In this document: piece after piece, positions 14,037 through 45,000 of the stretch | How positions within the stretch are numbered: the first letter of the stretch is position 1 | How the letters are laid out: each line of letters begins with the position of its first letter | Assembly: GCA_023396555.1 (NCBI GenBank) | Contig: JAEWWC010000058.1 | Span: forward strand, 1-58,103 | Origin: Bacillota bacterium | Lineage (GTDB): Bacteria; Bacillota; Clostridia; Christensenellales; SZUA-584 | DNA length: 58,103 nucleotides | Reading direction: 5' to 3' | Made by a program: the position numbers and the translations under genes | The notes under the pieces: model-generated | What the model was told of the DNA's origin: nothing | Databases searched by the model: none | What the model saw: only the letters and a program-made list of their open reading frames with translations

Positions 14037-14050
14037 GGGAGTTAATACCT

Positions 14051-15136: not shown

Positions 15137-15137
15137 T

Positions 15138-16259: not shown

Positions 16260-16300
16260 AAGACGGCAAGAACCTACACGAAGAAAGGCGGGGAGCATCC

Positions 16301-16861
16301 ATGAGCTATTATATGCACGAAAGCAGCATCATCGACGACGGTGTGAAGATCGGCGACGGCACGAAGATATGGCATTTTTGTCACGTGCAAAACGGCGCGG
16401 AGATAGGCCGGGATTGTATGCTGGGGCAGAACGTATATATCGGCAGCGGCGTGAAAATCGGCAACGGGGTGAAGCTGCAGAACAACGTATCGGTGTACGA
16501 GGGTGTGGAGCTGGAGGATGGCGTGTTCTGTGGCCCGTCCATGGTGTTCACCAACGACCTGACACCCAGAAGCCTGTACCCCAAGGAAAAGGGCTGCGCA
16601 GTCAGGACGCTGGTGCGGCAGGGCGCCACTATCGGCGCGAACGCCACCATCGTATGCGGAGTAACCATCGGCAGGTGGGCGCTGGTGGCGGCGGGGGCGG
16701 TGGTCGCCAAGGATGTGCCCGACTACGCGCTGGTACGTGGAACGCCCTCGTCTGTAGTGGGGTGGGTATGCGAATGTGGAAAGCCGCTGAAGGACGGCTT
16801 TCAATGCCGAAGCTGCGGCAGAAAATATAACCCGGACGGCGGTCGGCTGACAGAGGAATAG
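16301..16861 (+). CDS. wbpD: Left-handed beta-helix N-acetyltransferase (WbpD-like)
   Basis: ATG at 16301 after AAAGGCGGGGAG. MSYYMHESSIIDDGVKIGDGTKIWHFCHV...NNVSVYEGVELEDGVFCGPSMVFTND...GATIGANATIVCGVTIG closely parallels WbpD. Confidence 0.8.
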   Translation: MSYYMHESSIIDDGVKIGDGTKIWHFCHVQNGAEIGRDCMLGQNVYIGSGVKIGNGVKLQNNVSVYEGVELEDGVFCGPSMVFTNDLTPRSLYPKEKGCAVRTLVRQGATIGANATIVCGVTIGRWALVAAGAVVAKDVPDYALVRGTPSSVVGWVCECGKPLKDGFQCRSCGRKYNPDGGRLTEE

Positions 16862-17098
16862 AAATCGAAATCTTCCGAAAAGATCCCAAGCCTTAGCGGC
16901 TCATTATTTGATACGTTTTGTCGTTTAAAAGCGATTGAAATTGATTTTCACTCGCTTTTTGCATAAAGAAATTGATTTTTACTGTGATGTATGCTATATG
17001 TATATAAATATATTAAGAATATGTGACGCAAATATTACAAAAAACCATTTCAAAAAATGCTTGCTGTCGACGGATCAAAGACTGCAAAACAGGAGGAA

Positions 17099-19423: not shown

Positions 19424-19459
19424 GCAGTAAGCGAAAAAACTGACCAAAACCGACAGCAG

Positions 19460-19489
19460 TTGACCTTACAGGTAACTTTGTATTATAAT
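19460..19489 (+). promoter_or_regulatory. Promoter of the Fn3-repeat protein gene
   Basis: TTGACC (19460-19465), an 18-nt spacer, then TATAAT (19484-19489). Confidence 0.55.
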
Positions 19490-19572
19490 GACAATAAAAT
19501 GGTGGTGTTGTACTTGTTTGGGACGGTTTTCAAGATTTTTTTGATAAAACATTTCTTTTGCGGAGGTTACTG

Positions 19573-22218
19573 ATGAAAAGACGTTTGTTGGTGGGAGCTG
19601 CGGTTATACTGTTGGTGCTCGTGACAGGAGTATCCATCGCTTTGGCTGTGGGCACAGCCAGCGTCAGCTTTTCCGGACCAACCACGGTAGAAGTGGGGAA
19701 AACATATACGTATAACTACACATTGCAGGTTAATTCGGCCTGCGCGGCAAACGCCAATATTGTCGTCGGCGGCGCGTTCGAAAAGTTATCCGGAGGCTCC
19801 GGGATTTTCTATGACTCTATAGAGAAGGGCAACACGACAGCGACCCTTTACGGAAGCGTGACAGTCAGAGTGCGGTCTGACGTGAACGCGGGAACACCCG
19901 GCACGATCACTCTTGGCGACAATAGCAAGGGCATTTATCTGGTATACCAAAACGGGGTGCTGCAAACCCCGGTTGAATTTGATGTGACGGGATCCTTAAC
20001 GGCGGCTGTGGCACCGACCGCGACCGCGACTGCTATCGGCTACGACTCCGTACGTCTGACATGGAACGCGATGACGGGTGCGACGGGGTATGAGATATTC
20101 CGATCTGTAGGAGTGAACGGCGGACTGACACTGTACGATACAACTACGCAGCCATCCTTTTTGGACACCGGGTTAGCCACGGGCACGCCGTACTATTACC
20201 GTATACGGCCTTATAGAATGAATGGGGAGGCAAAAGTATATGGTGGCTTGACGGGAGTTCTGTCGGCAACACCCACGTTGTCTACCGTCACCAATCCTGT
20301 GGCGGCCACAACGGAATACAACGTTATCACGCTGACATGGAACACGGTTCCCGGTGCGACAGGGTATGAAGTATTTCGGTCGGTGGGCGTGAACGGCGGG
20401 CTGACGCTGTACAAGACCATAACCGAGGCGTCCTATCAAGATACTGGGCTGCCGAGTGGCACGACGTGCTATTATCGGATAAGGGCGTATAGGACTGTAG
20501 GATCTACTAAGATATACGGTGGGTTGACCGGCACAGCTTTTTCCACCACAAAGACGCTGGGAACGGTGATAAATGCCAAGGCGGCAACAACAGATTTCAA
20601 TGTCATCACGCTGACATGGAATGCAGTAACAGATGCATCGGGATATGAGATATTCCGGTCTGTGGGAGTGAACGGTGGACTGACGCTGTACAAGACGGTC
20701 ACTGATGCGACCTATGTGGATACGGGACTACTGAGCGGAACAACATACTATTATCGGATAAGGGCCTACCGGACCGTTGGGGAAACAAAGGTGTACGGCG
20801 GCTTGACAGGTACTATCTACTCTACCACGCGGACACTTGGCACCGTAATGAATGCAAAAGCAGTATTGGGCGCCTATGATAGCATAGATGTAACTTGGAA
20901 CGCGGTAGTGGATGCGACGGGGTATGAGATATTCAGGTCTATGGGAGTGAATGGTGGACTGACGCTGTATGATACAACGACTGTGCCGAGCTTTACAGAT
21001 ACTAACTTGACAACGGGTACGCCGTATTATTACCGGATGAGAGCTTATCGTTTGGTGGGTGAAAGCAAGGTGTACGGTGGACTGACGGGAACGGTATCGG
21101 CAACGCCGACACTGGGGACAGTGGTAAACGCAACGGCTGTGGCGGTTAATCCTGTCAGCATCGGTCTGACGTGGAATGCGGTGCCCGGCGCAACAGGGTA
21201 TGAGATATTCCGTTCTGTGGGGGTGAACGGCGGGCTGACACTATACCGGACAATAACCGAGGTATCCTATACTGATACCGGGCTTGTTACCAATACGTCT
21301 CACTATTACCGAATAAGAGCCTATCGTATGGTCGGCGAAACCAAGGTATACGGAGGCTTGACGGGAACGGTATCGGCGATGCCGATACTGGGGACGATAA
21401 CTAACCCAAAAGCGGTGGCAAGCGATCCTGTCAGCATTGATCTGACATGGAATGCGGTGCCCGGCGCAACAGGGTATCAGATATTCCGGTCTGTAGGGGT
21501 GAACGGCGGGCTGACGCTGTATGATACAACGACTGACCCGTCCTATACGGATACAGGGCTAACCACAGGCGTTGCATGCTATTACCGGATGCGCGCTTAC
21601 TGGACGTCGGGTGATACCACGGTTTTCGGAGGCTTGACGGGAACGGTATCGGCGATGCCGATACTGGGGACGATAACTAACCCCAAAGCAGTGGCAAGCG
21701 ATCCTGTTAGCATCGATCTGACATGGAACGCGGTACCCGACGCAACCGGGTATGAGATATTTCGTTCTGTAGGCGTGAACGGTGGGCTGACACTGTACAA
21801 GACCACAACCGATCCGTCCTATACGGATACAGGGCTAACCACAGGCGTTGCATGCTATTACCGGATGCGCGCTTACTGGACGTCGGGTGACACCACAATA
21901 TACGGAGGGCTGACGGGCACGATATCGGCGACGCCGGCTTTAGGTACGGTGACGAATGCAAAAGCTACGGCGAGCAGTTCCGCCCGCGTCGACCTGGCAT
22001 GGAATGCAGTATCCGGTGCGACCGGATATGAGATATTCCGGTCTGTAGGCGTGAACGGCGGACTGACACTGTATAAGACCACAACCGACCCGTCCTATGC
22101 AGATACGGCATTGACCAAGGATGTTATATACTATTACCGGATACGGGCTTACTGGGCATCGGACGGAACCACGATATACGGAGGGTTAACGAACACGGTT
22201 TCGGCAAAGGCAATATGA
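19573..22218 (+). CDS. Secreted or membrane-anchored protein: N-terminal ~120-aa beta-sandwich-like domain followed by 8 tandem fibronectin type III-like modules
   Basis: ATG at 19573 after GGAGG, then MKRRLLVGAAVILLVLVTGVSIALA. Eight ~92-aa units each contain TWNAVPGATGYEIFRSVGVNGGLTLY...TGL..G..YYYRIRAY....T.(V/I)YGGLTG. Confidence 0.85.
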   Translation: MKRRLLVGAAVILLVLVTGVSIALAVGTASVSFSGPTTVEVGKTYTYNYTLQVNSACAANANIVVGGAFEKLSGGSGIFYDSIEKGNTTATLYGSVTVRVRSDVNAGTPGTITLGDNSKGIYLVYQNGVLQTPVEFDVTGSLTAAVAPTATATAIGYDSVRLTWNAMTGATGYEIFRSVGVNGGLTLYDTTTQPSFLDTGLATGTPYYYRIRPYRMNGEAKVYGGLTGVLSATPTLSTVTNPVAATTEYNVITLTWNTVPGATGYEVFRSVGVNGGLTLYKTITEASYQDTGLPSGTTCYYRIRAYRTVGSTKIYGGLTGTAFSTTKTLGTVINAKAATTDFNVITLTWNAVTDASGYEIFRSVGVNGGLTLYKTVTDATYVDTGLLSGTTYYYRIRAYRTVGETKVYGGLTGTIYSTTRTLGTVMNAKAVLGAYDSIDVTWNAVVDATGYEIFRSMGVNGGLTLYDTTTVPSFTDTNLTTGTPYYYRMRAYRLVGESKVYGGLTGTVSATPTLGTVVNATAVAVNPVSIGLTWNAVPGATGYEIFRSVGVNGGLTLYRTITEVSYTDTGLVTNTSHYYRIRAYRMVGETKVYGGLTGTVSAMPILGTITNPKAVASDPVSIDLTWNAVPGATGYQIFRSVGVNGGLTLYDTTTDPSYTDTGLTTGVACYYRMRAYWTSGDTTVFGGLTGTVSAMPILGTITNPKAVASDPVSIDLTWNAVPDATGYEIFRSVGVNGGLTLYKTTTDPSYTDTGLTTGVACYYRMRAYWTSGDTTIYGGLTGTISATPALGTVTNAKATASSSARVDLAWNAVSGATGYEIFRSVGVNGGLTLYKTTTDPSYADTALTKDVIYYYRIRAYWASDGTTIYGGLTNTVSAKAI
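20005..22215 (+). repeat. 8 tandem ~276-bp coding repeats (Fn3-like modules); units 6 and 7 are nearly identical
   Basis: The periodicity is visible in both DNA and protein. The string GGLTGTVSAMPILGTITNPKAVASDPVSIDLTWNAVP occurs twice, 276 bp apart. Confidence 0.9.
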
Positions 22219-22336
22219 CAGAACAAGAATCTAATTATTAACATGGATAGAGTCTGTGCTTCATTAATGCTTAGTGATTTTCAGTAAAGCCAGGCTCTAT
22301 TTTTGTCCGTGTGCCGATTATATGGATAAGAAGTAG

Positions 22337-22365
22337 TTTACACCTGACCGATCAACGTTTAGAAT
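22337..22365 (+). promoter_or_regulatory. Candidate promoter for the glycosyltransferase/polymerase/flippase/pse gene block
   Basis: TTTACA, a 17-nt spacer, then TAGAAT, about 80 nt upstream of the GT2 start. Confidence 0.4.
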
Positions 22366-22445
22366 GTGTTTGCAATGCTAACCGGACTAGATGCTGTTGT
22401 GATACCAGCAATCCAAGCCGGTATATCAGGAGAGGGGACTGCGGA

Positions 22446-23507
22446 GTGGAGAATAGGCCAAAAATCAGCGTTATTATGCCTGTATATAAGGTAGAAGGAT
22501 ATGTCGGAAAGGCGATCGAGAGCATACTGAATCAAACGTTTCAGGATTTTGAGTATCTGGTGGTAGACGACGGCAGCCCGGACGCGTGCGGCGCTATTTG
22601 CGATAAATACGCGGCAAAGGACAGCCGCATCCATGTGATACACAAGGAAAACGGCGGCGCGCCTAGCGCCCGCAACGCGGCAATGGAGCTTGCAAAAGGC
22701 AAGTATTATTACTTTATGGACTCGGACGACTGGGCCAAACCCACGATGCTGGAGGACATGTATGCGCTGGCGGAAGCCAATGAAGCGCAGCTTGTTGTGA
22801 CCGGATATTTTATCGACACGTATTACAGCAGCTCGGAATATATAACGCTGAACATGTCACATCCGGACGCCGTCTATAGCGATAGAGAGGCTTTCAGGAG
22901 GGATGCGTACCGGCTGTTCGACAAGAACCTGCTGTATACGCCATGGAATAAGCTGTTTCTGGCGGATTACCTGAATGAGAATAACATCTGGTTTCCGCAG
23001 ACGTTTTGGGACGACTTTCCGTTCAACCTGAGCGTTGTGCGTGACGTGGGGCGGGTCGTTATCTCGTCAAAGCAGTACTATCATTTTATGAGGGTGCGCG
23101 CGGAGTCGGAAACAGCCAAATATGTGGCCGCGATGTATGACAAGCGAGAGGAGGAGCACGGCTGGATGTTGGAGCTTTACCGGCACTGGGGTATCGATGA
23201 CGAGGCCAGTCGGGAGTTTCTGTCACGGCGGTACATTGAGCGACTGGTCGGGTGCATTGAGAATGTCACGAATAAGAACTGCAGGATGACGGGTAAGGAG
23301 AAAAGGCAGGAGATTCGCAGAATGCTGTCTAATCCGAACGTGCAGGAAAGCCTTGCGCTGGCCCGGCCGCGGTCTATCATGATGAAAATAATGTTGATCC
23401 CGATCAGGTGGAGCAGTGCGGGGCTGACATACCTAGAAAGCCGCATGATTACGTGGGTTAAGTCAAAGAATGCAAGGCTTTTTGCAAGCCTGAAGGCGAA
23501 ACGATGA
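22446..23507 (+). CDS. Glycosyltransferase family 2
   Basis: In-frame GTG at 22446 after AGGAGAGGGGA. PKISVIMPVYKVEGYVGKAIESILNQTFQDFEYLVVDDGSPD ... YYYFMDSDDW (the DxD motif). Confidence 0.85.
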   Translation: MENRPKISVIMPVYKVEGYVGKAIESILNQTFQDFEYLVVDDGSPDACGAICDKYAAKDSRIHVIHKENGGAPSARNAAMELAKGKYYYFMDSDDWAKPTMLEDMYALAEANEAQLVVTGYFIDTYYSSSEYITLNMSHPDAVYSDREAFRRDAYRLFDKNLLYTPWNKLFLADYLNENNIWFPQTFWDDFPFNLSVVRDVGRVVISSKQYYHFMRVRAESETAKYVAAMYDKREEEHGWMLELYRHWGIDDEASREFLSRRYIERLVGCIENVTNKNCRMTGKEKRQEIRRMLSNPNVQESLALARPRSIMMKIMLIPIRWSSAGLTYLESRMITWVKSKNARLFASLKAKR

Positions 23508-23687: not shown

Positions 23688-24755
23688 ATGGGAAACATCC
23701 TAATGATCAGTGTGATCATGCCAGTATATAACGTAGAGAATTATCTAGACAAAGCAGTGGAGAGCGTACTAGGTCAGACATACGGCAACCTAGAGCTGAT
23801 TTTGGTGGATGACCGCTCGCCCGATAACTGCAGCAGAAAATGCGACGAGTGGGCAGCTCGGGATATTCGCGTGAAGGTTATACATAAGCCGGTGAATGAA
23901 GGTCTGGGGTTAGCGAGAAACACCGGAATGCAGCTTGCACAAGGCCACTATATTATGTTCATGGATTCGGATGATTGGATCGAAGACGGTATGCTGGAAG
24001 GCATGTTAAAAGCTGCAACAGCCCATAACAGCGATATCGTAATCTGCGGATATTCGCAAGACTATGCCGACAAAGCAGGGAACGTCAACTATTCGGTCCG
24101 TGTCTCAATTCCTGAACTTAAAGCGGATGGACGTCAGGCAGTACTGAAAGCAGCTATCGAAATCGACTATGCTAAGCTTTTTTCATTTGCTTGGAACAAG
24201 CTCTATTCTGCCAATTTGATAAAAAGGAATGGGTGCCTATTCACCAAGACGAAGCTTATTGAGGATTTTCTTTTCAATATAGTAGTGTTTGGATACACGG
24301 AGCGCATTACAGTCATTTCGGAAATTTTTTACCATTACATTAAGCCTCTGCATAGTACACTTCTTTCGGCTTTTTGTGAGAATTACCAGGAAATCATCGA
24401 TTTAAGGTTTGTTAAGGCACAAGAGATTCTTGCAGAAGCCGGAGTTTATAAAGGAAGAACAAGGTCAATGCTTTGCTTTATATATGTGAAGCATATTTTT
24501 GCGCGTCTTGAAAGGGATTGTTGGCCTGAGAGCAAAATGCGCTTGATAGAGAGATATGAGGCAGTGACTAAAATGCTGCTGCTGGAGCCGGTAAAAGAAG
24601 CGGTATGTTTCAGTAAATCTTACTCCACGTCCGGCTTATTGATGAACTTTGTATTAAAAACAAAAAACGCATTTATAATTACTGTTGGTGCCAAGCTCCT
24701 TTGGCTTGTGAAGAATAAATTGCCTAGACTATTTAACGTGATTAAGCAGCACTGA
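23688..24755 (+). CDS. Glycosyltransferase family 2
   Basis: ISVIMPVYNVENYLDKAVESVLGQTYGNLELILVDDRSPD ... YIMFMDSDDW. Confidence 0.85.
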   Translation: MGNILMISVIMPVYNVENYLDKAVESVLGQTYGNLELILVDDRSPDNCSRKCDEWAARDIRVKVIHKPVNEGLGLARNTGMQLAQGHYIMFMDSDDWIEDGMLEGMLKAATAHNSDIVICGYSQDYADKAGNVNYSVRVSIPELKADGRQAVLKAAIEIDYAKLFSFAWNKLYSANLIKRNGCLFTKTKLIEDFLFNIVVFGYTERITVISEIFYHYIKPLHSTLLSAFCENYQEIIDLRFVKAQEILAEAGVYKGRTRSMLCFIYVKHIFARLERDCWPESKMRLIERYEAVTKMLLLEPVKEAVCFSKSYSTSGLLMNFVLKTKNAFIITVGAKLLWLVKNKLPRLFNVIKQH

Positions 24756-24769: not shown

Positions 24770-27337
24770 ATGGTTGAAATCCACTCCAAGAAAGCGAATG
24801 TGAAGGTGAATGTAAAAAACAAGTATCCACTCGCATTGATCAGAGAATGGTTCATTGTACTTTATATGGTTATATGCATAGCGTGGATGTTCCCGCTGTT
24901 AGGTGATGTACGTAGTTGGATCAGCTGGGCAGTTTCGATCATGGGTGTGCTTTTGATCGTTGGGGATATATTTACTAGCCGTATAGTATTCCGAGCAAAA
25001 TACTGGTATATCAGCATTGCTTTCATGGTTGTATGTGGTGTATCCACACTATTAAATATCGGCGGCGATGTAACGTCCGGTATTAAACAAATGCTCCACT
25101 CTAGTATTTTTTTGTTTTTACTCTACATGCAAGACCCCAAAGCGTCGGAGCAAAACTATCGCAAGCTTTTGTGCAGGATCAATAGCATCATCATTGCAAT
25201 CGCGTTTGTATCAGCAGTATTATCAGTGATCATGTTCTTGATGAGCATCGGATTTTTTATTGAACAGGACGTAGCGATTTACCGTGTCGGTTTTCTGGAA
25301 AACAGATTGTATGGCGTCTATACCAGTCCGAACATAGGGGCCTTGTTCGGTATCATCTCTATTGTGAGCGGATGCATAAATTCTATATTAAAGAACGGAA
25401 AAGCACTTAAGTGGAGCGGGTTTTATGTGGCAAACGCCGTATTCCAGCTTTTCTACTTCATCTTGGCGCTTTCAAACGGGGCGACATTGTCTATTGTTGC
25501 CTTTACCGCTTTGTTCTGTGCCCTATTCGTTTTCAGAAAACTGAGAATAAAGCGAAATAGGTTGATGAGTATACTGCTGAGTTTTGCGTGCTTTGTCGGT
25601 ATTCTGGGTGGGCTATTCGCCGTGACGACAGGTCTAAAGCAGTTATTCCCCCTGCTGAGCAACGCGGTGCATAAGGTCATAGGTATTACTGCTACAGAGG
25701 ATGATATATTTTTGGATGAGAATATCAAAATAGAAAGGGTCGAGTCCGGAGAGGATTTGTCTAACAATCGATTTACCATTTGGTCTGCCGGCATTAAGCT
25801 CTGGGAAAAGCAGCCGGTTTTCGGGCTTAGCCATGCCGATTATAATGAATCACCTATAGTCATGACGGAGAAGATGGCACAAAGCCAACTGACGGATATC
25901 GAGAAGTCTTGGATACAAAAAATCAACGGCAACATGCACAATGTGTATCTGCAGGTGCTTGTTTACAGTGGTATAATGGGTTTTGTGTTGATTGGGGGGA
26001 TCATCCTTCTTGTCATGCTGAGCTACTTGAAATACCTTTTCAGGAACAAGCCGGATAACGAGCATTACTTGTTAATCAGCATTATTTTCTGTACATTAGC
26101 AATGTTGTTAGCCGATGGTTTTGTTGAATCGCATTTGTTGTTCAGCAGGCAAAACGCTATTGGATGCATATTCTGGGTATATGCGGGACTGGGCCTGGTT
26201 TTGATTAATAAACAAGATAGGAAAGACTACGAACAAAAAGGAAAAGGCAACTATGCCTTTGTGTGCGAAACCCCTTACCAAGCGCTTAACCAGATAAACT
26301 TTGTGTTGAATAAGACTGATAAGGATATGAGCTCGGCGGATATATACATACATCACCAGTTTGCGTCTGCACAGGTGATGTCAGACAAGCTTAAGGACGC
26401 AGGTGTTTTTCAAAACGTGATTGATGTCCATCCGTATTTATCAGGCAAAACGAACTTGAACAAGATGCTTACGCTGGGTCGGATTTTATTCTCCAAAGCA
26501 ACGCTCAAACGGCATGTACAAACGGGAAGCATTGATGACAGAGGATACCAGTTTATGGTCTGCTGTTCATACACGATGTTGACGATCAACCTGTTTTTGT
26601 TGCACCAGCCTGGTGTTTTCTTTCTTGAAGACGGAACAGGATCTTACTTTGGCAATATGGAGAAGGACAGCCGATCACGTATCTTCAGCTTTTTCAACCG
26701 CTTCTTCATAAATGGTGCGCTGGATTATCATCCGCAGCGGCTGTATGTCAATAACCCGGCGCTGTGCAAATCCACGATAGCGGAGGAGGTTCGTCCGTTG
26801 CCGCCGCTGGATGCGCAAAACCCGGCGCTTGCGCTGCTGGAGACGATATTTGACTATCAGGATAACCCGGCTTACTCGCAGAAGAAGACTGTCTATCTGA
26901 CACAGCCACTGGAAGAAGTTAAGGGGTACATAGCCGGGAAGCATGAGGTTATGGTCGGGATGCTTGATCCGCACCGGGACAATGTGCTGCTCCGCATACA
27001 TCCGCGTCAGAAGAACGTGTTTGCGGGAGGGCTGCTGGCTGACGAGGTAGGTAACCTGTGGGAGCTGGAATGCATCCGTAATATCACGGACGAGCATGTG
27101 CTGATCGGAGCTTTTTCCACGGCGCAGGTGACGCCCAAGCTGCTTTGTGACAAGGAGCCGTATCTGGTGTTCACCTACAAGCTGTTTTTTGACAATCTGG
27201 ACTCGGAGATGTGGTGCGGAGCCTCCGGGATGATTGAGCAATTTAAGGCGTTCTATCGCCAGACAGGCAAGCTGTTTGTGCCCGAAAGCATGGACGAACT
27301 TCGCAGGATAGTGGATCGACTGGCGGCTAGACGCTAG
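24770..27337 (+). CDS. Fusion protein: N-terminal Wzy/O-antigen-ligase-like polytopic membrane domain plus a C-terminal GT52 (bacterial sialyltransferase family)-like domain
   Basis: RBS AAGGAG precedes the start. Residues ~1-480 hold many TM helices and a Wzy_C-type loop (NRFTIWSAGIKLWEKQPVFGLSHADY...NMHNVYLQVLVYSGIMGF). The C-terminal ~370 aa are soluble and carry FFLEDGTGSYF (D/E-D/E-G motif) and LRIHPRQ (HP motif), as in Neisseria Lst-type GT52 enzymes. Confidence 0.7.
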   Translation: MVEIHSKKANVKVNVKNKYPLALIREWFIVLYMVICIAWMFPLLGDVRSWISWAVSIMGVLLIVGDIFTSRIVFRAKYWYISIAFMVVCGVSTLLNIGGDVTSGIKQMLHSSIFLFLLYMQDPKASEQNYRKLLCRINSIIIAIAFVSAVLSVIMFLMSIGFFIEQDVAIYRVGFLENRLYGVYTSPNIGALFGIISIVSGCINSILKNGKALKWSGFYVANAVFQLFYFILALSNGATLSIVAFTALFCALFVFRKLRIKRNRLMSILLSFACFVGILGGLFAVTTGLKQLFPLLSNAVHKVIGITATEDDIFLDENIKIERVESGEDLSNNRFTIWSAGIKLWEKQPVFGLSHADYNESPIVMTEKMAQSQLTDIEKSWIQKINGNMHNVYLQVLVYSGIMGFVLIGGIILLVMLSYLKYLFRNKPDNEHYLLISIIFCTLAMLLADGFVESHLLFSRQNAIGCIFWVYAGLGLVLINKQDRKDYEQKGKGNYAFVCETPYQALNQINFVLNKTDKDMSSADIYIHHQFASAQVMSDKLKDAGVFQNVIDVHPYLSGKTNLNKMLTLGRILFSKATLKRHVQTGSIDDRGYQFMVCCSYTMLTINLFLLHQPGVFFLEDGTGSYFGNMEKDSRSRIFSFFNRFFINGALDYHPQRLYVNNPALCKSTIAEEVRPLPPLDAQNPALALLETIFDYQDNPAYSQKKTVYLTQPLEEVKGYIAGKHEVMVGMLDPHRDNVLLRIHPRQKNVFAGGLLADEVGNLWELECIRNITDEHVLIGAFSTAQVTPKLLCDKEPYLVFTYKLFFDNLDSEMWCGASGMIEQFKAFYRQTGKLFVPESMDELRRIVDRLAARR

Positions 27338-27441: not shown

Positions 27442-28869
27442 ATGGGTCTTAAAAATATACTATCAGGCATGGTAAAATCCAAAAGCGAAAACACGCTGGC
27501 GTTCTTTAACATATTAGGGCCGGTCGTCTTAAACGGCATCAACTTCTTTACGATTCCGATATTTACCCGCATGCTGGGGCCTGCAAACTTTGCTATCGTA
27601 CAGGTATATATCGCATGGGTTCAGATACTGACGCTGATCATCGGACTGCAGACCGTTTCATCTATCGGCGTGGCACGCGTTCACATCAGTGCGGATAAGC
27701 AGACGCAGTATCGGTCGAGCATACTCAGCCTGTCTTTCGTTTCGCTCATCGGGGTCAGCCTGCTGCTGCTGATATTTATTAGGCCGGTGACCCGCTTCCT
27801 GAATCTGAGTACCGTAATGGTTGGCATCATGATACTGCAAAGCTTTGGCGCGTATGTGATTTCGTTCGCGACTACAACATTTACGTATGACAAAAAAGCA
27901 CAGAAGACATTTCTGCTGTCTGTATCGACCGCGTTCGCCACGGTAGCGCTGTCGCTTGTGCTGCTGTTCCTGACGCCGGACAATGGCTCGGACAAGGCGT
28001 TCGCGCGCATCTGGGGCATCGCCCTTCCCAACGCCCTCATCGGCGCTGTGCTCTTTGCCATCTTTTTGGTGCGTGGCAAGACGACCTTTTCCAGGGAGTA
28101 TTGGAAGTTCTGCCTGCCGCTGGCACTGCCCCTGATATTTCATGGCCTGTCACACATTATTCTTTCGCAAACTGGCAAGGTGATGCTCCAGAAGATGGTG
28201 AACAACGATGTGGCGGGGGTATACAGCTTCGTCGTTGTGCTGACAGGCTTGGTCAATGTGATATGGGTGGCGCTTAACAACACATGGGTCCCGTTTTACT
28301 ATGACGATATGAACAACGGCGATAGAGAGCTTGTCGTAAAGAAAACACGTAACTATACGCTGCTGTTCACCGCGTTGACAGCGGGGTTTATACTGCTGTC
28401 TCCCGAGGTGGCGATGCTATTCGCTTCGCCGGAGTTCTGGAGCGGTATCGATCTGATACCTGTATGCACCGTCAGTATGTTCATGGTATTCCTGTATAGC
28501 TTTCCGGTTAACTTCCAGATGTTTCACAAGAAGTCCATTCATGTGGCTGTGGGTACAGCGCTGGCGGCTGCCATCAATATCGTGCTTAATTTGCTGCTGA
28601 TACCTTCCCTAGGTATGCTGGGGACGGCGGTAGCTACGATGGCGGCGTATACCGCGTTATTCATATTTCATCAGTTGATTGCCAAATACGTTATTCGGCA
28701 GGGGTATCACTTCAGCGCACGGGACTATGCGCCTGCTATCCTGGCGGTGGGCGCCAGCGTGGCGGTATTCTATCTGCTGAAGGATTTCTGGTATATCCGC
28801 TGGGCGATGGGGGCGGCAATGGGCGTATGGCTGCTTCGGCGGATCATAAAGAACAAGACGATATTCTAA
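27442..28869 (+). CDS. wzx: Wzx-type oligosaccharide flippase (MOP superfamily polysaccharide biosynthesis protein)
   Basis: 475 aa with about 12-14 TM helices. The N-terminus LAFFNILGPVVLNGINFFTIPIFTRMLGPANFAIV is typical of this family. Confidence 0.75.
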   Translation: MGLKNILSGMVKSKSENTLAFFNILGPVVLNGINFFTIPIFTRMLGPANFAIVQVYIAWVQILTLIIGLQTVSSIGVARVHISADKQTQYRSSILSLSFVSLIGVSLLLLIFIRPVTRFLNLSTVMVGIMILQSFGAYVISFATTTFTYDKKAQKTFLLSVSTAFATVALSLVLLFLTPDNGSDKAFARIWGIALPNALIGAVLFAIFLVRGKTTFSREYWKFCLPLALPLIFHGLSHIILSQTGKVMLQKMVNNDVAGVYSFVVVLTGLVNVIWVALNNTWVPFYYDDMNNGDRELVVKKTRNYTLLFTALTAGFILLSPEVAMLFASPEFWSGIDLIPVCTVSMFMVFLYSFPVNFQMFHKKSIHVAVGTALAAAINIVLNLLLIPSLGMLGTAVATMAAYTALFIFHQLIAKYVIRQGYHFSARDYAPAILAVGASVAVFYLLKDFWYIRWAMGAAMGVWLLRRIIKNKTIF

Positions 28870-28971
28870 GAAAGGTTGCACTTTGGGCCCAGCTACAGTA
28901 CAATTTGGGAAGCAATATTTTGGCGGCCAGCAGCCGATATTATGGATACAAGGATAGAGAAGGAGAAGAAC

Positions 28972-29964
28972 ATGCTGAACAACAAATCGATATTGATCAC
29001 CGGGGGGACGGGATCCTTCGGCAACCATTTTACCCAATACGTATTGGACCATTATGATCCCAAGAAGATCGTGATATATTCCCGTGACGAATATAAACAG
29101 TTTGTGATGTCCAACGCGTTTCGGGCTCATGCGGACAAGCTGCGGTTCTTTATCGGTGATGTGCGCGACAAGGAACGCCTCGTGCGCGCGCTGGACGGCA
29201 TCGATTTTGTGATACACGCCGCGGCATTAAAACAGGTGCCCGCGTGTGAGTATAACCCTATCGAAGCGGTGCGCACCAACATCGACGGCGCCATCAACGT
29301 GGTTAACGCGGCGCTGGATACCGGCGTGTCGCGCGTGGTGGCGCTGTCCACCGACAAGGCGGTGAACCCGATCAACCTGTATGGCGGCACCAAACTTGTA
29401 TCGGACAAGCTGTTTACTGCCGCCAATGCGTATGCGGGCAGTAAGGACATCCGTTTCTCCATCGTGCGCTACGGAAACGTGGCGGGCAGCCGCGGTTCCG
29501 TCATCCCCTTCTTCAAGGGGATGATCGAAAAAGGCGAGAAAGCGCTGCCGATCACAGACTACCGCATGACGCGGTTCTGGATAAGTCTGGAGCAGGGCAT
29601 CGAGCTGGTTATCAAGGCATTGAAGCTTTCGCACGGCGGAGAAACGTTCATCTCCAAAATACCCTCGTTTAAGATCACCGATCTGGCGCAGGCAATGCTG
29701 CCCGGATGCGAGATGCCTGAGGTAGGCATTCGTGAGGGGGAGAAACTGCACGAGGTGATGGTGACACGGGACGACTCGGCTAACACCTACGAATATGATG
29801 ACAGCTATGTCATCTATCCCCACTACACCTGGTGGGATAAAGCTCACATGATCCCCGGCGGCAAAAAGGTGGAGACAGGCTTTGAGTATAGCTCCGGCAC
29901 CAACAAGGAGTGGCTGTCGGTAGAACAGCTTCAGGAATTACTGGTTCAGGTGCATAAGGGGTGA
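28972..29964 (+). CDS. pseB: UDP-N-acetylglucosamine 4,6-dehydratase (inverting), PseB/FlaA1-type
   Basis: ATG at 28972 after AGAAGGAGAAG. MLNNKSILITGGTGSFGN...RFFIGDVRDKERL...DFVIHAAALKQVP..EYNP.E...TNI.GA.NV...STDKAVNPINLYGGTKL.SDKLF...RYGNVAGSRGSVIPFF...LPITD.RMTRFWISLE is collinear with C. jejuni PseB as I remember it. Confidence 0.9.
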   Translation: MLNNKSILITGGTGSFGNHFTQYVLDHYDPKKIVIYSRDEYKQFVMSNAFRAHADKLRFFIGDVRDKERLVRALDGIDFVIHAAALKQVPACEYNPIEAVRTNIDGAINVVNAALDTGVSRVVALSTDKAVNPINLYGGTKLVSDKLFTAANAYAGSKDIRFSIVRYGNVAGSRGSVIPFFKGMIEKGEKALPITDYRMTRFWISLEQGIELVIKALKLSHGGETFISKIPSFKITDLAQAMLPGCEMPEVGIREGEKLHEVMVTRDDSANTYEYDDSYVIYPHYTWWDKAHMIPGGKKVETGFEYSSGTNKEWLSVEQLQELLVQVHKG

Positions 29965-29969
29965 GTGGA

Positions 29970-30710
29970 ATGGCGAAAACGGTTGCTGTGATACAGGCGC
30001 GCGTGGGGTCGACAAGGCTGCCCGGCAAGGTGCTAAAGCTGCTGCATGGCAAAACCGTGTTGGCGCATGTGATTGAAAGGGTGCGGCAGGCCGCGGAGGT
30101 GGTCGAAATCGTGATCGCCACGACCGTCTCGCCAGGCGACGATGCGATTGTTGACGAGGCGTTGCGTTGCGCCACAACGGTGTTCCGCGGCAGCGAGGAG
30201 GATGTGCTGAGCCGTTATTACGGCGCGGCGGCGGAATCTGGTGCGAATATCGTGGTGCGCGTCACATCGGACTGCCCGCTGATCGACCCGCAGGTGATGG
30301 ACGAAATCATCAGGTTTTTTAAGAGGAATGATTATGACATCGTGACGAACGCCGCCAGCGATATATCCAAGCGGACTTATCCGCGTGGGCTGGATACCGA
30401 GGTGTTTTCGTTTTCCGCGCTGGAGGAGGCTGCAAACAAGGCGGACAAGCAGTATCAGCACGAGCACGTAACGCCCTATATCTACGAGCACGGCCGCGCC
30501 TATTATCACATGAATGACACTGACTATTCGCGCTACCGCTGGACGCTGGACACCGAGGAGGACTGGCGACTGATCGAAGCGCTGTACGACAGCCTTTATA
30601 AGGGCCGGCATGACTTTTATTTGCCGGACATATTGGACGTGATGCAGCGGCGGCCGGAGTTGTTTGATATCAACAAGGATATTGGGCAGAAAAAGCTGGG
30701 AACGGAGTAG
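29970..30710 (+). CDS. Nonulosonate cytidylyltransferase (SpsF/CTP_transf_3-type; PseF role)
   Basis: MAKTVAVIQARVGSTRLPGKVLKLL.GKTVLAHVIERV is an SpsF-like cytidylyltransferase N-terminus. The gene lies between pseB and pseI. Confidence 0.7.
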   Translation: MAKTVAVIQARVGSTRLPGKVLKLLHGKTVLAHVIERVRQAAEVVEIVIATTVSPGDDAIVDEALRCATTVFRGSEEDVLSRYYGAAAESGANIVVRVTSDCPLIDPQVMDEIIRFFKRNDYDIVTNAASDISKRTYPRGLDTEVFSFSALEEAANKADKQYQHEHVTPYIYEHGRAYYHMNDTDYSRYRWTLDTEEDWRLIEALYDSLYKGRHDFYLPDILDVMQRRPELFDINKDIGQKKLGTE

Positions 30711-30714
30711 AAGC

Positions 30715-31773
30715 GTGAACACTATTGCAATATGCGACCGTTTAATCGGTGAGGGATATCCGGCGTATATCATCGCTGAAATGTCTGCTAATCATGCAGG
30801 GAGCATGAACAATGCTAGAAAAATCATCCGCGCTGCGAAGGACGCCGGAGCCGATTGTATAAAGGTGCAGACGTATACTGCGGACACGCTTACCATCAAT
30901 TGTGACAACGAATTCTTCTCAATAAAGGACGGCCTGTGGAAGGGGGAAACGCTGTACAGCCTTTACGGCAAAGCGTACACGCCGTGGGAGTGGCAGGCCG
31001 AGATGAAGGCTGAGGCGGAGAACATCGGGCTGGACTTCTTCTCCACACCTTTTGACAACTCGGCAGTGGATTTTCTCGAAGATATCAGTGTGAAATTCTT
31101 CAAAATCGCTTCGTTTGAGCTAGTGGATATTCCGCTGATACAATATGTGGCGTCCAAGGGCAAGCCGGTGATAATTTCCACCGGCATGGCAAGCTTTGAC
31201 GAGATACGGGACGCCGTGGACGCGGTACGGTCGCAGGGAAATGAATCGCTGGCGTTGATGAAATGCTCCAGCGCTTACCCCGCCGTTCCGGATGACATGA
31301 ACCTCAGAACGCTTCAGCACATAGCGGACACTTTTCAAGTTCCCGTCGGTTTATCGGATCATTCGCTGGGTTCCATCAGCGCTGTTACGGCTGTGGCGCT
31401 GGGCGCGTGCATCATCGAAAAGCACTTCTGCCTGAGTCGCGGACTGGAGAATCCGGACGCGGCATTTTCCATGGAGCCGGACGAATTCTCGCAGATGGTA
31501 AAGGATATCCGTACCGCGGAGAAGGCGATAGGGAAAGCCGGCTACGATATTTCCGAAAAGGAGAAGGACAGCCTGCGCTTCCGGCGGTCCCTGTTCGTCG
31601 TAAAGGATATCGGCAAAGGCGAGGCGCTGACGGCAGAAAACGTACGCAGCATCCGACCGGGACAGGGGATGAAGCCCAAGCACTACTTTGAAATATTGGG
31701 GAGGAAGGCGGCACAGGATATCAAAGCCGGTACGCCCCTGCAATTTGATCTGATTGAGGGCGGCGGGAAATGA
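30715..31773 (+). CDS. pseI: Pseudaminic acid synthase (NeuB family with a C-terminal SAF domain)
   Basis: GTG at 30715 after GGAG. IGEGYPAYIIAEMSANHAGS...AKDAGADCIKVQTY...FKIASFELVDIPLI...GKPVIISTGMA...LMKCSSAYPA...GLSDHSLG, followed by a SAF-type tail. Confidence 0.85.
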   Translation: MNTIAICDRLIGEGYPAYIIAEMSANHAGSMNNARKIIRAAKDAGADCIKVQTYTADTLTINCDNEFFSIKDGLWKGETLYSLYGKAYTPWEWQAEMKAEAENIGLDFFSTPFDNSAVDFLEDISVKFFKIASFELVDIPLIQYVASKGKPVIISTGMASFDEIRDAVDAVRSQGNESLALMKCSSAYPAVPDDMNLRTLQHIADTFQVPVGLSDHSLGSISAVTAVALGACIIEKHFCLSRGLENPDAAFSMEPDEFSQMVKDIRTAEKAIGKAGYDISEKEKDSLRFRRSLFVVKDIGKGEALTAENVRSIRPGQGMKPKHYFEILGRKAAQDIKAGTPLQFDLIEGGGK

Positions 31774-33266
31774 CGCCGTTTTATCTGCGGAAGGCCGAAT
31801 GGACCGACGCCAGAACGCTGCTCGACTGGGCCAACGACCCGGATACCCGGAGGAACTCCTTTCGTTCAGACGGGATAACATGGGAGGAGCATATCGGCTG
31901 GTTTGAAGCCTGTCTGAAAAATCCCAATATCGATTTTTATATCTGCTGCTGCGAGGACCAGCCCGTCGGCCAGGTGCGCCTGAACTGTGAAGGCGAAATT
32001 GGTGTGGTGAGCTACAGCATCGCCAGGGAAGCCCGCGGACAGGGCATCGGCAGCCAGATCATACAACTGATTGAAAAGGAGGCCCTCAGATCGAGGCCGG
32101 AGCTGACGACACTGTCGGGCAGCGTCAAGACGGAAAACGTCGCCTCGCAACGGATATTTGAGAAGAATGGCTATCGGAAGGAGACCGTTCAAGCGTCGGA
32201 GCCGTATTTGCGTTATATCAAGGCGCTGACGCGGCGGCCTGCCATCGGCATACGCGTAGACGCGAATAGCCATATCGCCACCGGACATATGATGCGCTGT
32301 CTGTCCATCGCGGCGGCGGTGAGGAAGACGGGGGCGGACTGCGTCTTTTTTACGGCGGAACGCGAGGCCGCCCGTTATGCGGAGGATCGCGGTTTTGAGT
32401 GTGTGCCGCTGGATTCGCAGTGGGACGACCTTGAGCCAGAGGCGGACAGGCTGCGGAGTGCGCTACGGGAGCGGGGTATCGGTAAACTGCTTGTCGATAC
32501 GTATTACGCTACGCCCGCATATCTTGAAAGGCTCCGTACGGGCGTCAGCGCCATCTATATGGACGATCTTAATGCGTTTTTCTGTCCGGCGGACATGCTG
32601 ATAAACTACAACATATACAGTGGCCTGTTCGATTATCCCCGGCTGTATCGGAACACCGGAACGCGCCTGCTGCTGGGCTGCGACTATGCGCCGCTGCGCG
32701 AAGAGTTCCGCGGACTGCCGCCCGTTGCCCGTGATAGCGTCCGCAGGGTGCTGATCACGACGGGTGGTACGGATCCGTACAACGTGGCGGGTAAGCTGCT
32801 GAAGCGTATAGGTGAGTGCGGACTGTTCGGTGGCGTGGAGTTTCATGTGATCGCGGGGCGGTTGAATGCGCAACTTGATAGTCTGAAGGCGCTGTCGGAA
32901 AAGCGGCCCGGCTTTGTGGTGTATTCGAACGCGCAGCGCATGGCGGAGCTGATGCGAAGCTGTGATCTGGCGGTGTCGGCGGGCGGCTCAACACTGTACG
33001 AGCTGTGCGCTTGCGGATTGCCGACCGTCACGCTCTCCATGGCGGACAACCAGCTGTACGCCGTGAGGGAGTTTGCCGTGCAGGGGCTGATGCCGTATGC
33101 GGGCGACATGCGCGCGGATGAATCGGCGTGCGTTGGGGCCGTGCTGGCCGCGCTAACTGCGCTGACGGAGGATAAGGAACGCCGCAGGCAGACTGCGCAG
33201 GGCATGAGGCTGCTGGTGGATGGAAACGGCGCGGGGCGCATCGCGGATGCCATTGCCGCGCTTTAA
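31770..33266 (+). CDS. Bifunctional PseH-like GNAT N-acetyltransferase (N-terminal) / PseG-like UDP-sugar hydrolase (C-terminal)
   Basis: Residues ~1-160 form a GNAT fold (VGQVRLN...ARGQGIGSQIIQLIEKEA...ENVASQRIFEKNGY). Residues ~165-498 are PseG-like GT-B (IGIRVDANSHIATGHMMRCLSIAAAV...LITTGGTDPYN...VSAGGSTLYELCACGLP). Confidence 0.8.
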   Translation: MTPFYLRKAEWTDARTLLDWANDPDTRRNSFRSDGITWEEHIGWFEACLKNPNIDFYICCCEDQPVGQVRLNCEGEIGVVSYSIAREARGQGIGSQIIQLIEKEALRSRPELTTLSGSVKTENVASQRIFEKNGYRKETVQASEPYLRYIKALTRRPAIGIRVDANSHIATGHMMRCLSIAAAVRKTGADCVFFTAEREAARYAEDRGFECVPLDSQWDDLEPEADRLRSALRERGIGKLLVDTYYATPAYLERLRTGVSAIYMDDLNAFFCPADMLINYNIYSGLFDYPRLYRNTGTRLLLGCDYAPLREEFRGLPPVARDSVRRVLITTGGTDPYNVAGKLLKRIGECGLFGGVEFHVIAGRLNAQLDSLKALSEKRPGFVVYSNAQRMAELMRSCDLAVSAGGSTLYELCACGLPTVTLSMADNQLYAVREFAVQGLMPYAGDMRADESACVGAVLAALTALTEDKERRRQTAQGMRLLVDGNGAGRIADAIAAL

Positions 33267-33284
33267 GCGATTTTGGAGGACGAA

Positions 33285-34409
33285 ATGTTTATACCCTACG
33301 GAAGACAATGCATTGAGGAAGACGATATACAGGCGGTTGCGGAGGTACTTCGGTCGGATTTTCTGACGACCGGCCCCAAGGCGGCGGAGTTTGAGCAGGT
33401 GATGACGGCATACACCGGAGCGAAGCATGCGGTCGCCATTAGCAACGGCACCGCGGCGCTGCATGCGGCCTGCCTCGCGGCGGGTATCGGCGAGGGCGAC
33501 GAGGTGATCACCTCGGCCATCACGTTCGCTGCGTCGGCCAACTGCACGTTGTTCTGCGGCGGCCGTCCGGTGTTCGCGGACATCGAACCGGCCACGTACA
33601 ACATCGATCCTGAGGATATCCGGCGTAAGATTACGGGCCGGACGAAGGCCATAATACCGGTGCATTTCACCGGGCAGCCGTGCGACATGGACGCCATTCA
33701 CGCCATCGCGGACGAATGCGGCCTTATGGTGATCGAGGATGCCGCACACGCGCTGGGGGCGGAATACAAGGGCAAAAGGATCGGCGCGTTGTCCGACATG
33801 ACCACGATGAGCTTCCATCCCGTCAAGCATATATCGACGGGCGAGGGCGGTATGATACTGACGAATGACGATGAGCTGATCAAAAGGCTGGTGCTCTTCC
33901 GTTCGCATGGCATCACGCGCGATGACAGCCTGATGAACCGCAACGAGGGCGGCTGGTACTATGAACAGCTTGAACTGTCCACCAACTACCGCATCACCGA
34001 CTTCCAGTGCGCACTGGGCATCAGCCAGATGAAAAAGCTGGACCGCTTTGTGCAGCGCCGCCGCGAAATCGCCCGGCGTTACGACGAGGCGTTCGCGGGG
34101 CTGGAGGGCATTGTGACGCCATGGCAGTCGCCCGACGGGTACAACAGCTACCATCTCTATGTGATACAGGTGACGCACATGCCCCGGAAGGAAGCGTTCG
34201 ACAGGCTCCGCGCGGCGGGGATCGGTGTTAATGTCCACTATATTCCCGTCTATAAGCACCCTTATTATCAGGCAAACGGTTATGTGGGCGTTTCGTGCCC
34301 CAACGCCGAAGCGCTGTATGAGAGGATGATCAGCCTGCCCATGTTCCCGCTGTTGACAGACGAGCAGCAGGATTACGTGATCGCGCAGGTGCGCGCGCTG
34401 CACGGGTGA
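33285..34409 (+). CDS. pseC: UDP-4-amino-4,6-dideoxy-N-acetyl-beta-L-altrosamine transaminase (DegT family)
   Basis: ATG at 33285 after GGAGG. MFIPYGRQCIEEDDIQAVAEVLRSDFLTTGPK...AISNGTAALHAA...SFHPVKHISTGEGGMILTND is typical of PseC. Confidence 0.85.
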   Translation: MFIPYGRQCIEEDDIQAVAEVLRSDFLTTGPKAAEFEQVMTAYTGAKHAVAISNGTAALHAACLAAGIGEGDEVITSAITFAASANCTLFCGGRPVFADIEPATYNIDPEDIRRKITGRTKAIIPVHFTGQPCDMDAIHAIADECGLMVIEDAAHALGAEYKGKRIGALSDMTTMSFHPVKHISTGEGGMILTNDDELIKRLVLFRSHGITRDDSLMNRNEGGWYYEQLELSTNYRITDFQCALGISQMKKLDRFVQRRREIARRYDEAFAGLEGIVTPWQSPDGYNSYHLYVIQVTHMPRKEAFDRLRAAGIGVNVHYIPVYKHPYYQANGYVGVSCPNAEALYERMISLPMFPLLTDEQQDYVIAQVRALHG

Positions 34410-44905: not shown

Positions 44906-44924
44906 AGCTAATTTGTGAGGGTTC

Positions 44925-45000
44925 GTGGCGCTAACGCGCCACAGGCGGGGGCGCTGCCCCCGCACCCCTGCCAAAGGGACGCGTCCCTTGGGAATCCCAT
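44925..45000. repeat. Third copy of the GC-rich double-hairpin repeat, preceded by a GTGGCGC/GCGCCAC hairpin
   Basis: 44947-45000 reads GGGGCGCTGCCCCCGCACCCCTGCCAAAGGGACGCGTCCCTTGGGAATCCCAT. By eye it is about 80 percent identical to 42068-42120 and sits in the same position, directly after a stop codon. Confidence 0.6.

Follow-up and report, generated by a model that had tools for sequence, protein, structure and literature searches.

Introduction

Pseudaminic acid (Pse) and legionaminic acid (Leg) shape immune recognition and phage susceptibility, and the enzymes that attach them to polysaccharides are barely known; described cases include examples from Tannerella and the Maf glycosyltransferases of flagellins. 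Here we report on a gene located in a stretch of 58,103 nucleotides (nt; contig JAEWWC010000058.1 of the GenBank assembly GCA_023396555.1, from a Bacillota bacterium of the Clostridia), which was analyzed as a whole and is referred to below as the window. The gene encodes a protein of 855 amino acids (aa) in which a membrane domain of the Wzy/WaaL superfamily is fused to a glycosyltransferase (GT) domain resembling the GT38 polysialyltransferases, and it precedes a flippase gene and the genes of a predicted Pse pathway. Both domains belong to known superfamilies; what appears to be uncharacterized is the architecture in which they are joined and the family of putative nonulosonate transferases to which the C-terminal domain belongs.

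The GT38 polysialyltransferases, such as NeuS of Escherichia coli, SiaD of Neisseria meningitidis and the enzyme of Mannheimia haemolytica (MhPST), are like the window domain in the GT-B fold, in the set of catalytic residues and in the order of these residues along the chain, and the donor of the window domain would likewise be a nine-carbon acid activated by cytidine monophosphate (CMP). In MhPST, E152-E153 lie in a D/E-D/E-G motif of which E153 is the catalytic base, H291 is the acid that stabilizes CMP, E323 binds the ribose, and S339-T340 coordinate the phosphate (PMC5517516). The window domain differs from the GT38 enzymes in being fused to a 12-helix membrane domain and in its genetic context, a Gram-positive locus for a heteropolysaccharide of the Wzx type, whereas the known GT38 enzymes serve the ATP-binding cassette (ABC) transporter-dependent (group 2) capsules of Gram-negatives; it probably also differs in adding one residue rather than a polymer, and in a donor that would be Pse rather than N-acetylneuraminic acid (Neu5Ac). 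The monosialyltransferases of families GT52 and GT80 (Neisseria Lst/NST, CpsK of Group B Streptococcus, Pasteurella PmST1) have the two sialyltransferase motifs in common with the window domain and the inverting mechanism predicted for it (PMC5517516). They are separate proteins and not fused to a polymerase, and the window domain has no match to the GT52 family of Pfam, PF07922. The closest functional analogue of the window domain appears to be CpsK, a separate GT52 protein encoded in a Gram-positive Wzx/Wzy capsule locus, which sialylates the repeat unit in the cytoplasm and thereby completes it.

As for nonulosonate transferases acting on glycans, Tanf_01245 and TFUB4_00887 of Tannerella forsythia have been implicated genetically; they contain D/E-D/E-G and HP motifs, and strain-specific variants serve Pse or Leg (PMC5420450). 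In contrast to the window protein, these are stand-alone, TagB-like GT-B enzymes of ~445 aa with a DXD motif; they come from a Gram-negative system of protein O-glycosylation, and no sequence relationship between them and the window family was seen. CMP-Pse or CMP-Leg is also used by the Maf flagellin glycosyltransferases and by KpsS1 of Acinetobacter, a retaining Pse transferase. These represent unrelated families and mechanisms, Maf having a protein acceptor and KpsS1 a retaining fold like that of the Kdo (3-deoxy-D-manno-octulosonate) transferases, and none of the searches made here matched them. On the membrane side, the Wzy_C superfamily (Wzy, WaaL of the Protein Data Bank (PDB) entry 7TPG, PglL/WsaB) shares with the N-terminal half of the window protein the Pfam match, the 12 helices, the big outer loop between helices 9 and 10 and the arginines of the outer loops; the window protein is distinguished by an additional glycosyltransferase of ~365 aa, predicted to be cytoplasmic, at its C-terminus.

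A Single Gene Encoding Two Domains

The open reading frame (ORF) of the fusion extends from 24770 to 27337 on the forward strand, stop codon included, as an uninterrupted frame of 855 codons, and an AGGAG box is located 8 nt 5' of its ATG. Its N-terminal part, aa 1-490 (24770..26239, +), forms a 12-helix membrane domain that Pfam, the AlphaFold2 (AF2) model and Foldseek place in the Wzy/WaaL superfamily; the remainder, aa 491-855 (26240..27334, +), is a GT-B domain, predicted to be cytoplasmic and GT38-like according to AF2, Foldseek and the PF07388 matches of its homologues, and a putative CMP-pseudaminic acid transferase. The earlier note on this DNA, made from the letters of the sequence, had proposed that a single ORF joins two functions that are usually separate, and the uninterrupted frame, the Wzy_C domain of the N-terminal half and the GT-B fold of the C-terminal half bear this out.

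The fusion is confirmed as a genuine single gene, with a junction that is not an artefact, because the identical protein is found in separate assemblies, diverged homologues are collinear with it and the DNA of the junction is clean. The same 855-aa protein, 100% identical, is encoded on several contigs of separate assemblies (NCBI, ENA and Logan), and a variant with at least 90% identity is present on a contig of 471 kb. A search with the whole protein returned collinear proteins of 852, 853 and 831 aa (55, 35 and 34% identity, respectively), all aligning with the fusion end to end across the short junction, and the architecture remains collinear in homologues with identity as low as 29%. Neither a long homopolymer run nor an in-frame internal start is present in the junction DNA. 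In the full-length AF2 model (predicted local distance difference test, pLDDT, 87.7; predicted TM-score, pTM, 0.84), the chain is continuous, with high confidence, from helix 12 into the GT domain. Homologous loci fetched for comparison, with which the window genes were compared by tblastn, are given L-numbers in the following, and homologous proteins P-numbers; in one of these loci, L002, another copy of the fusion (40% identity) has as its sole interruption an N-gap of the scaffold inside the gene.

A GT38-Like Domain at the C-Terminus

The C-terminal domain was modelled by AF2 on the family alignment (pLDDT 85, pTM 0.86) as a GT-B with two Rossmann-like halves. Among PDB structures, Foldseek ranked the M. 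haemolytica polysialyltransferase 5WC6 (5WC6_A) first for this model, with an E-value of 1e-9 and a TM-score of 0.57, and ranked it first again for the full-length model (E 1.6e-6). The matches below it are generic GT-B enzymes, and UDP-N-acetylglucosamine (UDP-GlcNAc; UDP, uridine diphosphate) 2-epimerases are also among the fold matches. At the sequence level, the homologues of the domain are mostly free-standing proteins of 353-395 aa, and three of them (P0002, P0005 and P0012), which share 29-39% identity with the window domain at E 4e-75 to 2e-40, score 29.4-30.0 bits on PF07388, the GT38 alpha-2,8-polysialyltransferase family, against a cut-off of 23.3. The window domain itself has no match to PF07388 at E ≤ 1; to judge from its sequence, its tie to that family is transitive and its position is at the edge of GT38.

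Regarding the family assignment, the earlier note had labelled the domain as GT52-like and had suggested a structural comparison with Lst/PmST3. The GT-B match stands, with a GT38 polysialyltransferase and not a GT52 enzyme as the best match, while the GT52 label has to be given up: PF07922 did not match the window domain at E ≤ 1 in the Pfam scan, and it was missing from the families returned for 15 family members and for 10 individually scanned homologues. The D/E-D/E-G and HP motifs are common to GT38, GT52 and GT80, and therefore their presence does not assign the domain to GT52. The nearest family, judging by the models and by the homologues, is GT38; we use the label "GT38-like" rather than GT38 member because the window sequence is under the PF07388 threshold and the context is not that of a polysialic acid capsule.

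The putative catalytic residues are arranged as follows. The D/E-D/E-G motif is E620-D621-G622 (26627..26635, +), in which D621, the counterpart of E153 of MhPST, is the predicted catalytic base. The HP motif lies in the segment R742-I-H744-P745-R746 (26993..27007, +; codons of H744-P745 at nt 26999-27004), where H744 is the likely stabilizer of the CMP phosphate and the counterpart of H291. They are followed by W764-E765 (27059..27064, +), with a putative ribose-binding glutamate as the counterpart of E323, and by S783-T784 (27116..27121, +), a putative phosphate-coordinating pair corresponding to S339-T340. The series E620-D621-G622 / H744-P745 / E765 / S783-T784 thus runs in the same order as E152-E153 / H291 / E323 / S339-T340 of MhPST, the equivalence being one of order and conservation and not of residue-level superposition.

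These residues are strongly conserved. Across 15 aligned family members there is no exception to the D and the G of the first motif or to the R-x-H-P of the second, and every one of the 35 fusion proteins aligned (35/35) has [DE][DE]G, H-P-R, W-E and S-T. More precisely, position 620 is E or D, position 621 is D or E and G622 is invariant, while H744, P745 and R746 occur in all 35 sequences and R742 in 34 of them. The two sialyltransferase motifs that the earlier note had read from the window sequence are, consequently, at the positions it gave and are conserved, not chance matches of short strings. From homology, fold and active-site conservation together, we infer that the C-terminal domain is a GT38-like inverting glycosyltransferase of the CMP-nonulosonate type.

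The Membrane Domain and Its Topology

The N-terminal half matches Pfam Wzy_C (PF04932) over aa 223-408 with 61.5 bits against a cut-off of 31.7 (E 1e-16), as the earlier note had anticipated, and the same domain is found in the homologues P0016-P0019 and in L020. In the full-length AF2 model there are 12 long helices, with a beta-hairpin between helices 5 and 6 and a loop of 87 aa between helices 9 and 10, and helix 12 passes straight into the GT-B domain. A crude Kyte-Doolittle scan gave 8-10 helices, which is an under-call, and the AF2 count of 12 was used instead. WaaL (7TPG) is the second-best PDB match of the full-length model (E 4e-5) and the sole structural match for the N-terminal half among the PDB matches listed by Foldseek.

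The loop between helices 9 and 10 (aa 305-391; 25682..25942, +) is large and acidic, with 8 K/R against 15 D/E, is predicted to be extracytoplasmic and contains a conserved SNNRFTIW...PVFG segment. Invariance throughout the 35 fusions is seen for R179, G182 and G401, and conservation of at least 90% for R334, W338, P349 and G352. The loops on the side of the N-terminus contain 13 K/R and 3 D/E (net +10), those on the opposite side 11 K/R and 20 D/E (net -9). Since 12 helices put both termini on one side, and given this distribution of charges, the positive-inside rule predicts a cytoplasmic GT domain and, on the outside, the conserved Wzy_C loop, a topology which fits the needs of both a CMP-sugar enzyme, on the inside, and a polymerase or ligase acting on the outer face; the C-terminal domain is thus predicted on the side where the earlier note needed it. 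The idea that the N-terminal domain has degenerated to a mere membrane anchor is ruled out by the invariant residues of the outer loops, kept across the 35 fusions.

Distribution of the Fusion and Genetic Context in Its Relatives

A scan of the genome collection with the single fusion protein as query gave no matches. With an alignment of four fusions (A2) as query and one genome per species, 20 loci were found, about 14 of which encode a full-length fusion with 29-55% identity. All of them come from Clostridia metagenome-assembled genomes (MAGs) of human, chicken, rabbit, goat and deer guts, and the fusion-bearing taxa include Christensenellaceae, Oscillospiraceae, Ruminococcus and other Clostridia. 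On a larger scale, a profile search of 1.84 billion representatives gave, at E ≤ 1e-3, 2,661 sequences related to the C-terminal domain; 34 of the best 150 are fusions, 805-919 aa long and with the GT domain in C-terminal position. The fusion is, therefore, a sizeable and unannotated family of gut Clostridia, widespread though uncharacterized: the Joint Genome Institute (JGI) annotation of one homologue reads only "O-antigen ligase", and no description of a Wzy_C::sialyltransferase-like fusion was found in the full-text literature searched. The earlier note had called the fusion uncharacterized, which holds for the literature searched, and had treated it as a single case, which it is not.

The genes surrounding the GT38-like domain are recurrent. 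Of the 20 species loci, 16 have Wzx directly 3' of the domain, whether this is fused or free, and 2 more have Wzx 5' of it. A NeuB-family synthase is encoded within the available flank (within 10 kb) in 13/20, as it also is in L003 and L005. The nonulosonate pathway, on the other hand, is not always the same. Pse-type genes are found in the window, L003, L009, L010 and L012, with the contig of L009 breaking off at a PseB 93% identical to that of the window; NeuC-containing loci, which are Leg- or Neu-like, are L005, L014, L016, L017 and L027; a third arrangement of nonulosonate genes is seen in L013 and L018-L021. When the fused loci are compared, it is L009, L010 and L012, those with Pse-type genes beside the fusion, whose GT domains come nearest to that of the window (50-61% identity). 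In the available flank of L011, L015, L022, L026 and L007 no nonulosonate synthase was seen.

The earlier note had asked whether the two halves are separate genes elsewhere, and in several relatives the two functions are found as separate adjacent genes. Directly 5' of the GT gene, the unfused loci L003, L005 and L022 encode a polytopic protein, which in L022 belongs to the EpsG family of polymerase type; what the fusion unites in one gene is therefore a pair of neighbours elsewhere. When 165 GT domains were placed in a quickly made neighbour-joining tree, about 12 changes between the fused and unfused state were required, and the largest all-fusion clade comprised 12 of 41; this suggests repeated fusion or fission in the family, in a tree too weak to rely on. 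One Oscillospiraceae MAG has a tandem pair of GT38-like paralogues with 68% identity (L025, 10022-12477), located 5' of a polytopic protein and of NeuB/NeuA-like genes.

The Flippase and Pseudaminic Acid Genes of the Window

Along the window, the order of genes is a WbpA/B/E/D-like pathway, two secreted proteins, two GT2 genes, the fusion and Wzx, followed by PseB, the PseF-like gene, PseI, PseH-G, PseC and a GT-C / GtrA / GT2 module. The flippase and pse genes, noted earlier, are confirmed by family matches. The Wzx-type flippase (27442..28869, +) matches Pfam Polysacc_synt (PF01943) at E 6e-22. PseB (28876..29964, +) matches NCBIfam TIGR03589 with 536 bits against a cut-off of 408, PseI, the pseudaminic acid synthase (30664..31773, +), TIGR03586 with 488 against 340, and PseC (33273..34409, +) TIGR03588 with 503 against 424. 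A protein of 498 aa (31770..33266, +) is a fusion of PseH (GNAT) and PseG, in which the PseG part reaches 196 bits on TIGR03590 (cut-off 154) and Pfam GNAT and Glyco_tran_28_C are recognized, while the PseH part, with 51 bits, is under the NCBIfam cut-off of 93. Finally, the CMP-nonulosonate synthetase (PseF-like; 29961..30710, +) matches Pfam CTP_transf_3 (E 1e-32) and has no equivalog-level NCBIfam match. A complete pathway to Pse5Ac7Ac is thus predicted at the locus, with PseB, PseC, PseG and PseI at equivalog level, PseH by its GNAT domain and PseF by CTP_transf_3 only. The PseF-like and PseI ORFs, as listed, overlap by 47 nt (29961-30710 and 30664-31773); the profile match of PseI begins at residue 34, and its true start is probably 3' of the listed TTG.

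Upstream of the fusion, a GT2 glycosyltransferase probably involved in repeat-unit assembly (22311..23507, +; Pfam Glycos_transf_2, E 5e-36) is followed by a second GT2 enzyme (23688..24755, +; Pfam E 8e-40), located directly 5' of the fusion. The first of these two GT2 genes is also conserved 5' of the fusion in L009, L010, L012, L015, L018 and L021.

Proposed Function and Alternative Explanations

The reading that we favour, with a probability of roughly 0.6 for the whole of it, is that the fusion works as an enzyme of two domains in a surface-glycan pathway that depends on Wzx, in a Gram-positive gut bacterium of the Clostridia; its GT domain would add Pse and its N-terminal domain would polymerize. 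In such a pathway the Pse enzymes would produce CMP-Pse5Ac7Ac, the product expected from the equivalog matches, and the GT2 enzymes would build an oligosaccharide linked to undecaprenyl pyrophosphate (undecaprenyl-PP). The C-terminal domain, tethered at the cytoplasmic face of the membrane, would take CMP-pseudaminic acid from the adjacent pathway and add one Pse residue to the undecaprenyl-PP-linked oligosaccharide by an inverting, SN2-like mechanism, in which, as their conservation suggests, D621 may act as the base and H744, S783 and T784 may stabilize the leaving CMP. The finished unit would then be flipped across the membrane by Wzx and polymerized on the outer face by the N-terminal Wzy_C domain, and its product might be attached to the wall by LytR-CpsA-Psr (LCP) enzymes, the candidates for this step. 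In the relatives, the same GT domain would serve Leg/Neu-type or other nonulosonate pathways.

The role of the fusion itself may be twofold: it would tether to the membrane a transferase that is otherwise peripheral, and it would make a single heritable unit of the two steps that are most specific to the glycan, the addition of the nonulosonate and the recognition, during polymerization, of the unit bearing it. One may speculate that the polymerization site is on or next to the nonulosonate, in which case both domains would change together whenever the sugar changes; this would explain why the two are neighbours or fused in many lineages.

The earlier note had proposed a Pse or Leg transferase physically coupled to the repeat-unit polymerase. 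Of this proposal, the GT-B fold of sialyltransferase type, the coupling and the nonulosonate context hold, whereas the GT52 family does not, and the role of the N-terminal domain as polymerase is not established, since Wzy_C also includes ligases and O-oligosaccharyltransferases. Transfer of Pse by the C-terminal domain is likewise a prediction from the sequence comparisons and the models.

Several points weigh against the favoured reading and have to be considered together. The function of every member of the family is assigned from sequence and models. The C-terminal half of the window protein (aa ~491-855) matches no Pfam or NCBIfam family, PDB sequence searches, whether made with the domain itself, with its homologue P0012 or with the profiles A1 (family) and A4 (sub-profile), returned only noise, and the resemblance to 5WC6 is one of about 13% identity at the TM-score given above. 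The cytoplasmic location of the domain is derived from the helix count and the charge bias of the loops, and the Wzy_C family spans polymerases, ligases and O-oligosaccharyltransferases without separating them. Among the ORFs scanned in the window, neither a priming phosphoglycosyltransferase nor a Wzz/CpsCD chain-length regulator was found, both of them usual companions of a Wzy polymerase. Moreover, the fusion also occurs as an orphan whose catalytic residues are intact (L007, 10001-12496; L008, 3009-5504; L011, 10001-12514): in L007 and L008 it is flanked by valS and prfC, and neither Wzx nor nonulosonate genes are close by, and L011 is similar. A model in which the fusion is coupled to its locus does not explain these copies.

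Some of these points bear on what we regard as the strongest of the alternatives, although a rather unlikely one, namely that the GT half is as described above and the N-terminal domain is a ligase or O-oligosaccharyltransferase (WaaL / PglL / WsaB-like) and not a polymerase. A single Pse-capped oligosaccharide would then be moved to a protein (e.g., an S-layer or dockerin-bearing one), a lipid or a wall acceptor. The Pfam family is named "O-antigen ligase" and takes in ligases, which is also what JGI calls a homologue; the lack of a chain-length regulator and of a priming transferase among the scanned ORFs would suit such an enzyme, as would the orphan copies of L007/L008 and L011, which are outside polysaccharide loci. 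WaaL 7TPG is, in addition, the only structural match of the N-terminal half, but it cannot tell a polymerase from a ligase, because no polymerase structure is among the PDB matches listed by Foldseek. A polymerase is favoured, instead, by the nature of the slot 5' of the GT gene in the unfused loci, occupied by a polytopic protein which in L022 is of the EpsG polymerase type, and by the cluster of the window, where no other Wzy-type candidate was recognized among the genes scanned, despite the presence of Wzx. Attachment to the wall is normally carried out in Gram-positives by LCP enzymes, and three LCP genes are present in the window.

A second alternative, which we consider very unlikely, assigns a processive activity to the C-terminal domain, which would make a Pse homopolymer or a poly-nonulosonate side chain. 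Its nearest sequence family (PF07388) and its nearest structure (5WC6) are indeed those of polysialyltransferases. Nevertheless, Wzx, the Wzy_C domain, two GT2 enzymes and a second amino-sugar pathway indicate a heteropolymer built of repeat units, and the cluster was found to contain neither an ABC exporter of the KpsMT type nor KpsS/KpsC genes; furthermore, the window domain is under the threshold of PF07388, and its family is far larger and more diverse than the known producers of polysialic acid.

Slightly less probable still, and in our opinion improbable, is that the C-terminal GT-B domain uses a donor other than a nonulosonate (e.g., CMP-Kdo, or a sugar activated by cytidine diphosphate or UDP) and that the Pse genes serve another transferase. 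The donor is predicted by comparison of sequences, the fold matches include generic GT-B enzymes and UDP-GlcNAc 2-epimerases, and five of the loci mentioned above (L011, L015, L022, L026 and L007) have no nonulosonate synthase in the available flank. Opposed to this are the full catalytic constellation of the CMP-sialic acid enzymes, which is invariant, and the co-location of the domain with NeuB-family synthases and CMP-synthetases across different types of pathway; besides, no other GT of the cluster has sialyltransferase features, the two upstream being GT2 enzymes, users of nucleoside diphosphate (NDP) sugars. Lastly, an artefactual joining of two adjacent genes, by chimeric assembly, by a missed stop or by a frameshift in sequencing, for which one might point to the separate adjacent genes of L003, L005 and L022 and to the N-gap in the scaffold L002, is effectively refuted by the identical 855-aa product of separate assemblies, by dozens of diverged full-length homologues with the same short junction, by the continuity of the AF2 model through helix 12 into the GT domain and by junction DNA free of long homopolymers.

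Implications for Nonulosonate Glycans of Gut Clostridia

With the favoured reading of a Pse transferase joined to a polymerase, the family offers good candidates for the nonulosonate transferases of gut Clostridia, complete with predicted catalytic residues. As annotation pipelines see the "O-antigen ligase" half only, the nonulosonate-decorated glycans of commensal Firmicutes are probably under-counted. The junction between a polymerase- or ligase-type domain and what would be the last cytoplasmic transferase also constitutes a natural system for the study of how specificity is matched between assembly inside the cell and polymerization on the outer face.

A broader proposal, which we put forward tentatively and hold to be possible rather than probable, is that the whole family of ~2,600 representatives, about a quarter of the closest of which are fused to Wzy_C, comprises the missing dedicated glycan nonulosonate transferases of Gram-positive gut bacteria. 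These would be a sister group of GT38 in which the donor has been switched among Pse, Leg and Neu-type sugars, and the fusion would couple the two domains physically and in specificity, the capping enzyme of the cytoplasm and the polymerase or ligase of the outer face both recognizing one and the same nonulosonate residue, so that only capped units are polymerized. If this were true, the family would represent a new Wzx/Wzy-type architecture, and glycoengineering could draw on it for Pse and Leg transferases.

Other Genes of the Window

Four consecutive genes at 12714-16861 (+) encode an NDP-sugar 6-dehydrogenase, a GFO/IDH/MocA oxidoreductase, a DegT aminotransferase and a hexapeptide acetyltransferase. 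They resemble the WbpA/B/E/D route, which leads to a UDP-2,3-diacetamido-2,3-dideoxy-uronic acid; the same glycan probably contains this sugar as a further component. Between this amino-sugar pathway and the GT2 genes (17057-22218, +) are a protein with SpoIID, SH3_3 and dockerin domains and an fn3/GH85_C protein; the Christensenellaceae locus L006/L009 likewise has a GH85_C/fn3 protein 5' of its GT2 pair.

On the other side of the cluster, 3' of PseC (34406-37081, +), a PMT-like GT-C membrane protein, a GtrA-family protein and a small GT2 look like a three-part module that adds a sugar to the glycan outside the membrane. The tRNA and Rfam scans of the window gave no match, and no ORF of at least 150 aa is present at 44905-46546. 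An IstB-like ATPase adjoining a DUF6291 protein (47262-48643, -) is possibly the remnant of a mobile element. The three LCP genes mentioned above lie in tandem at 50530-56615 (-), 23 kb 3' of the fusion locus, and encode proteins of 593-658 aa which are candidates for the attachment of the polymer to peptidoglycan.

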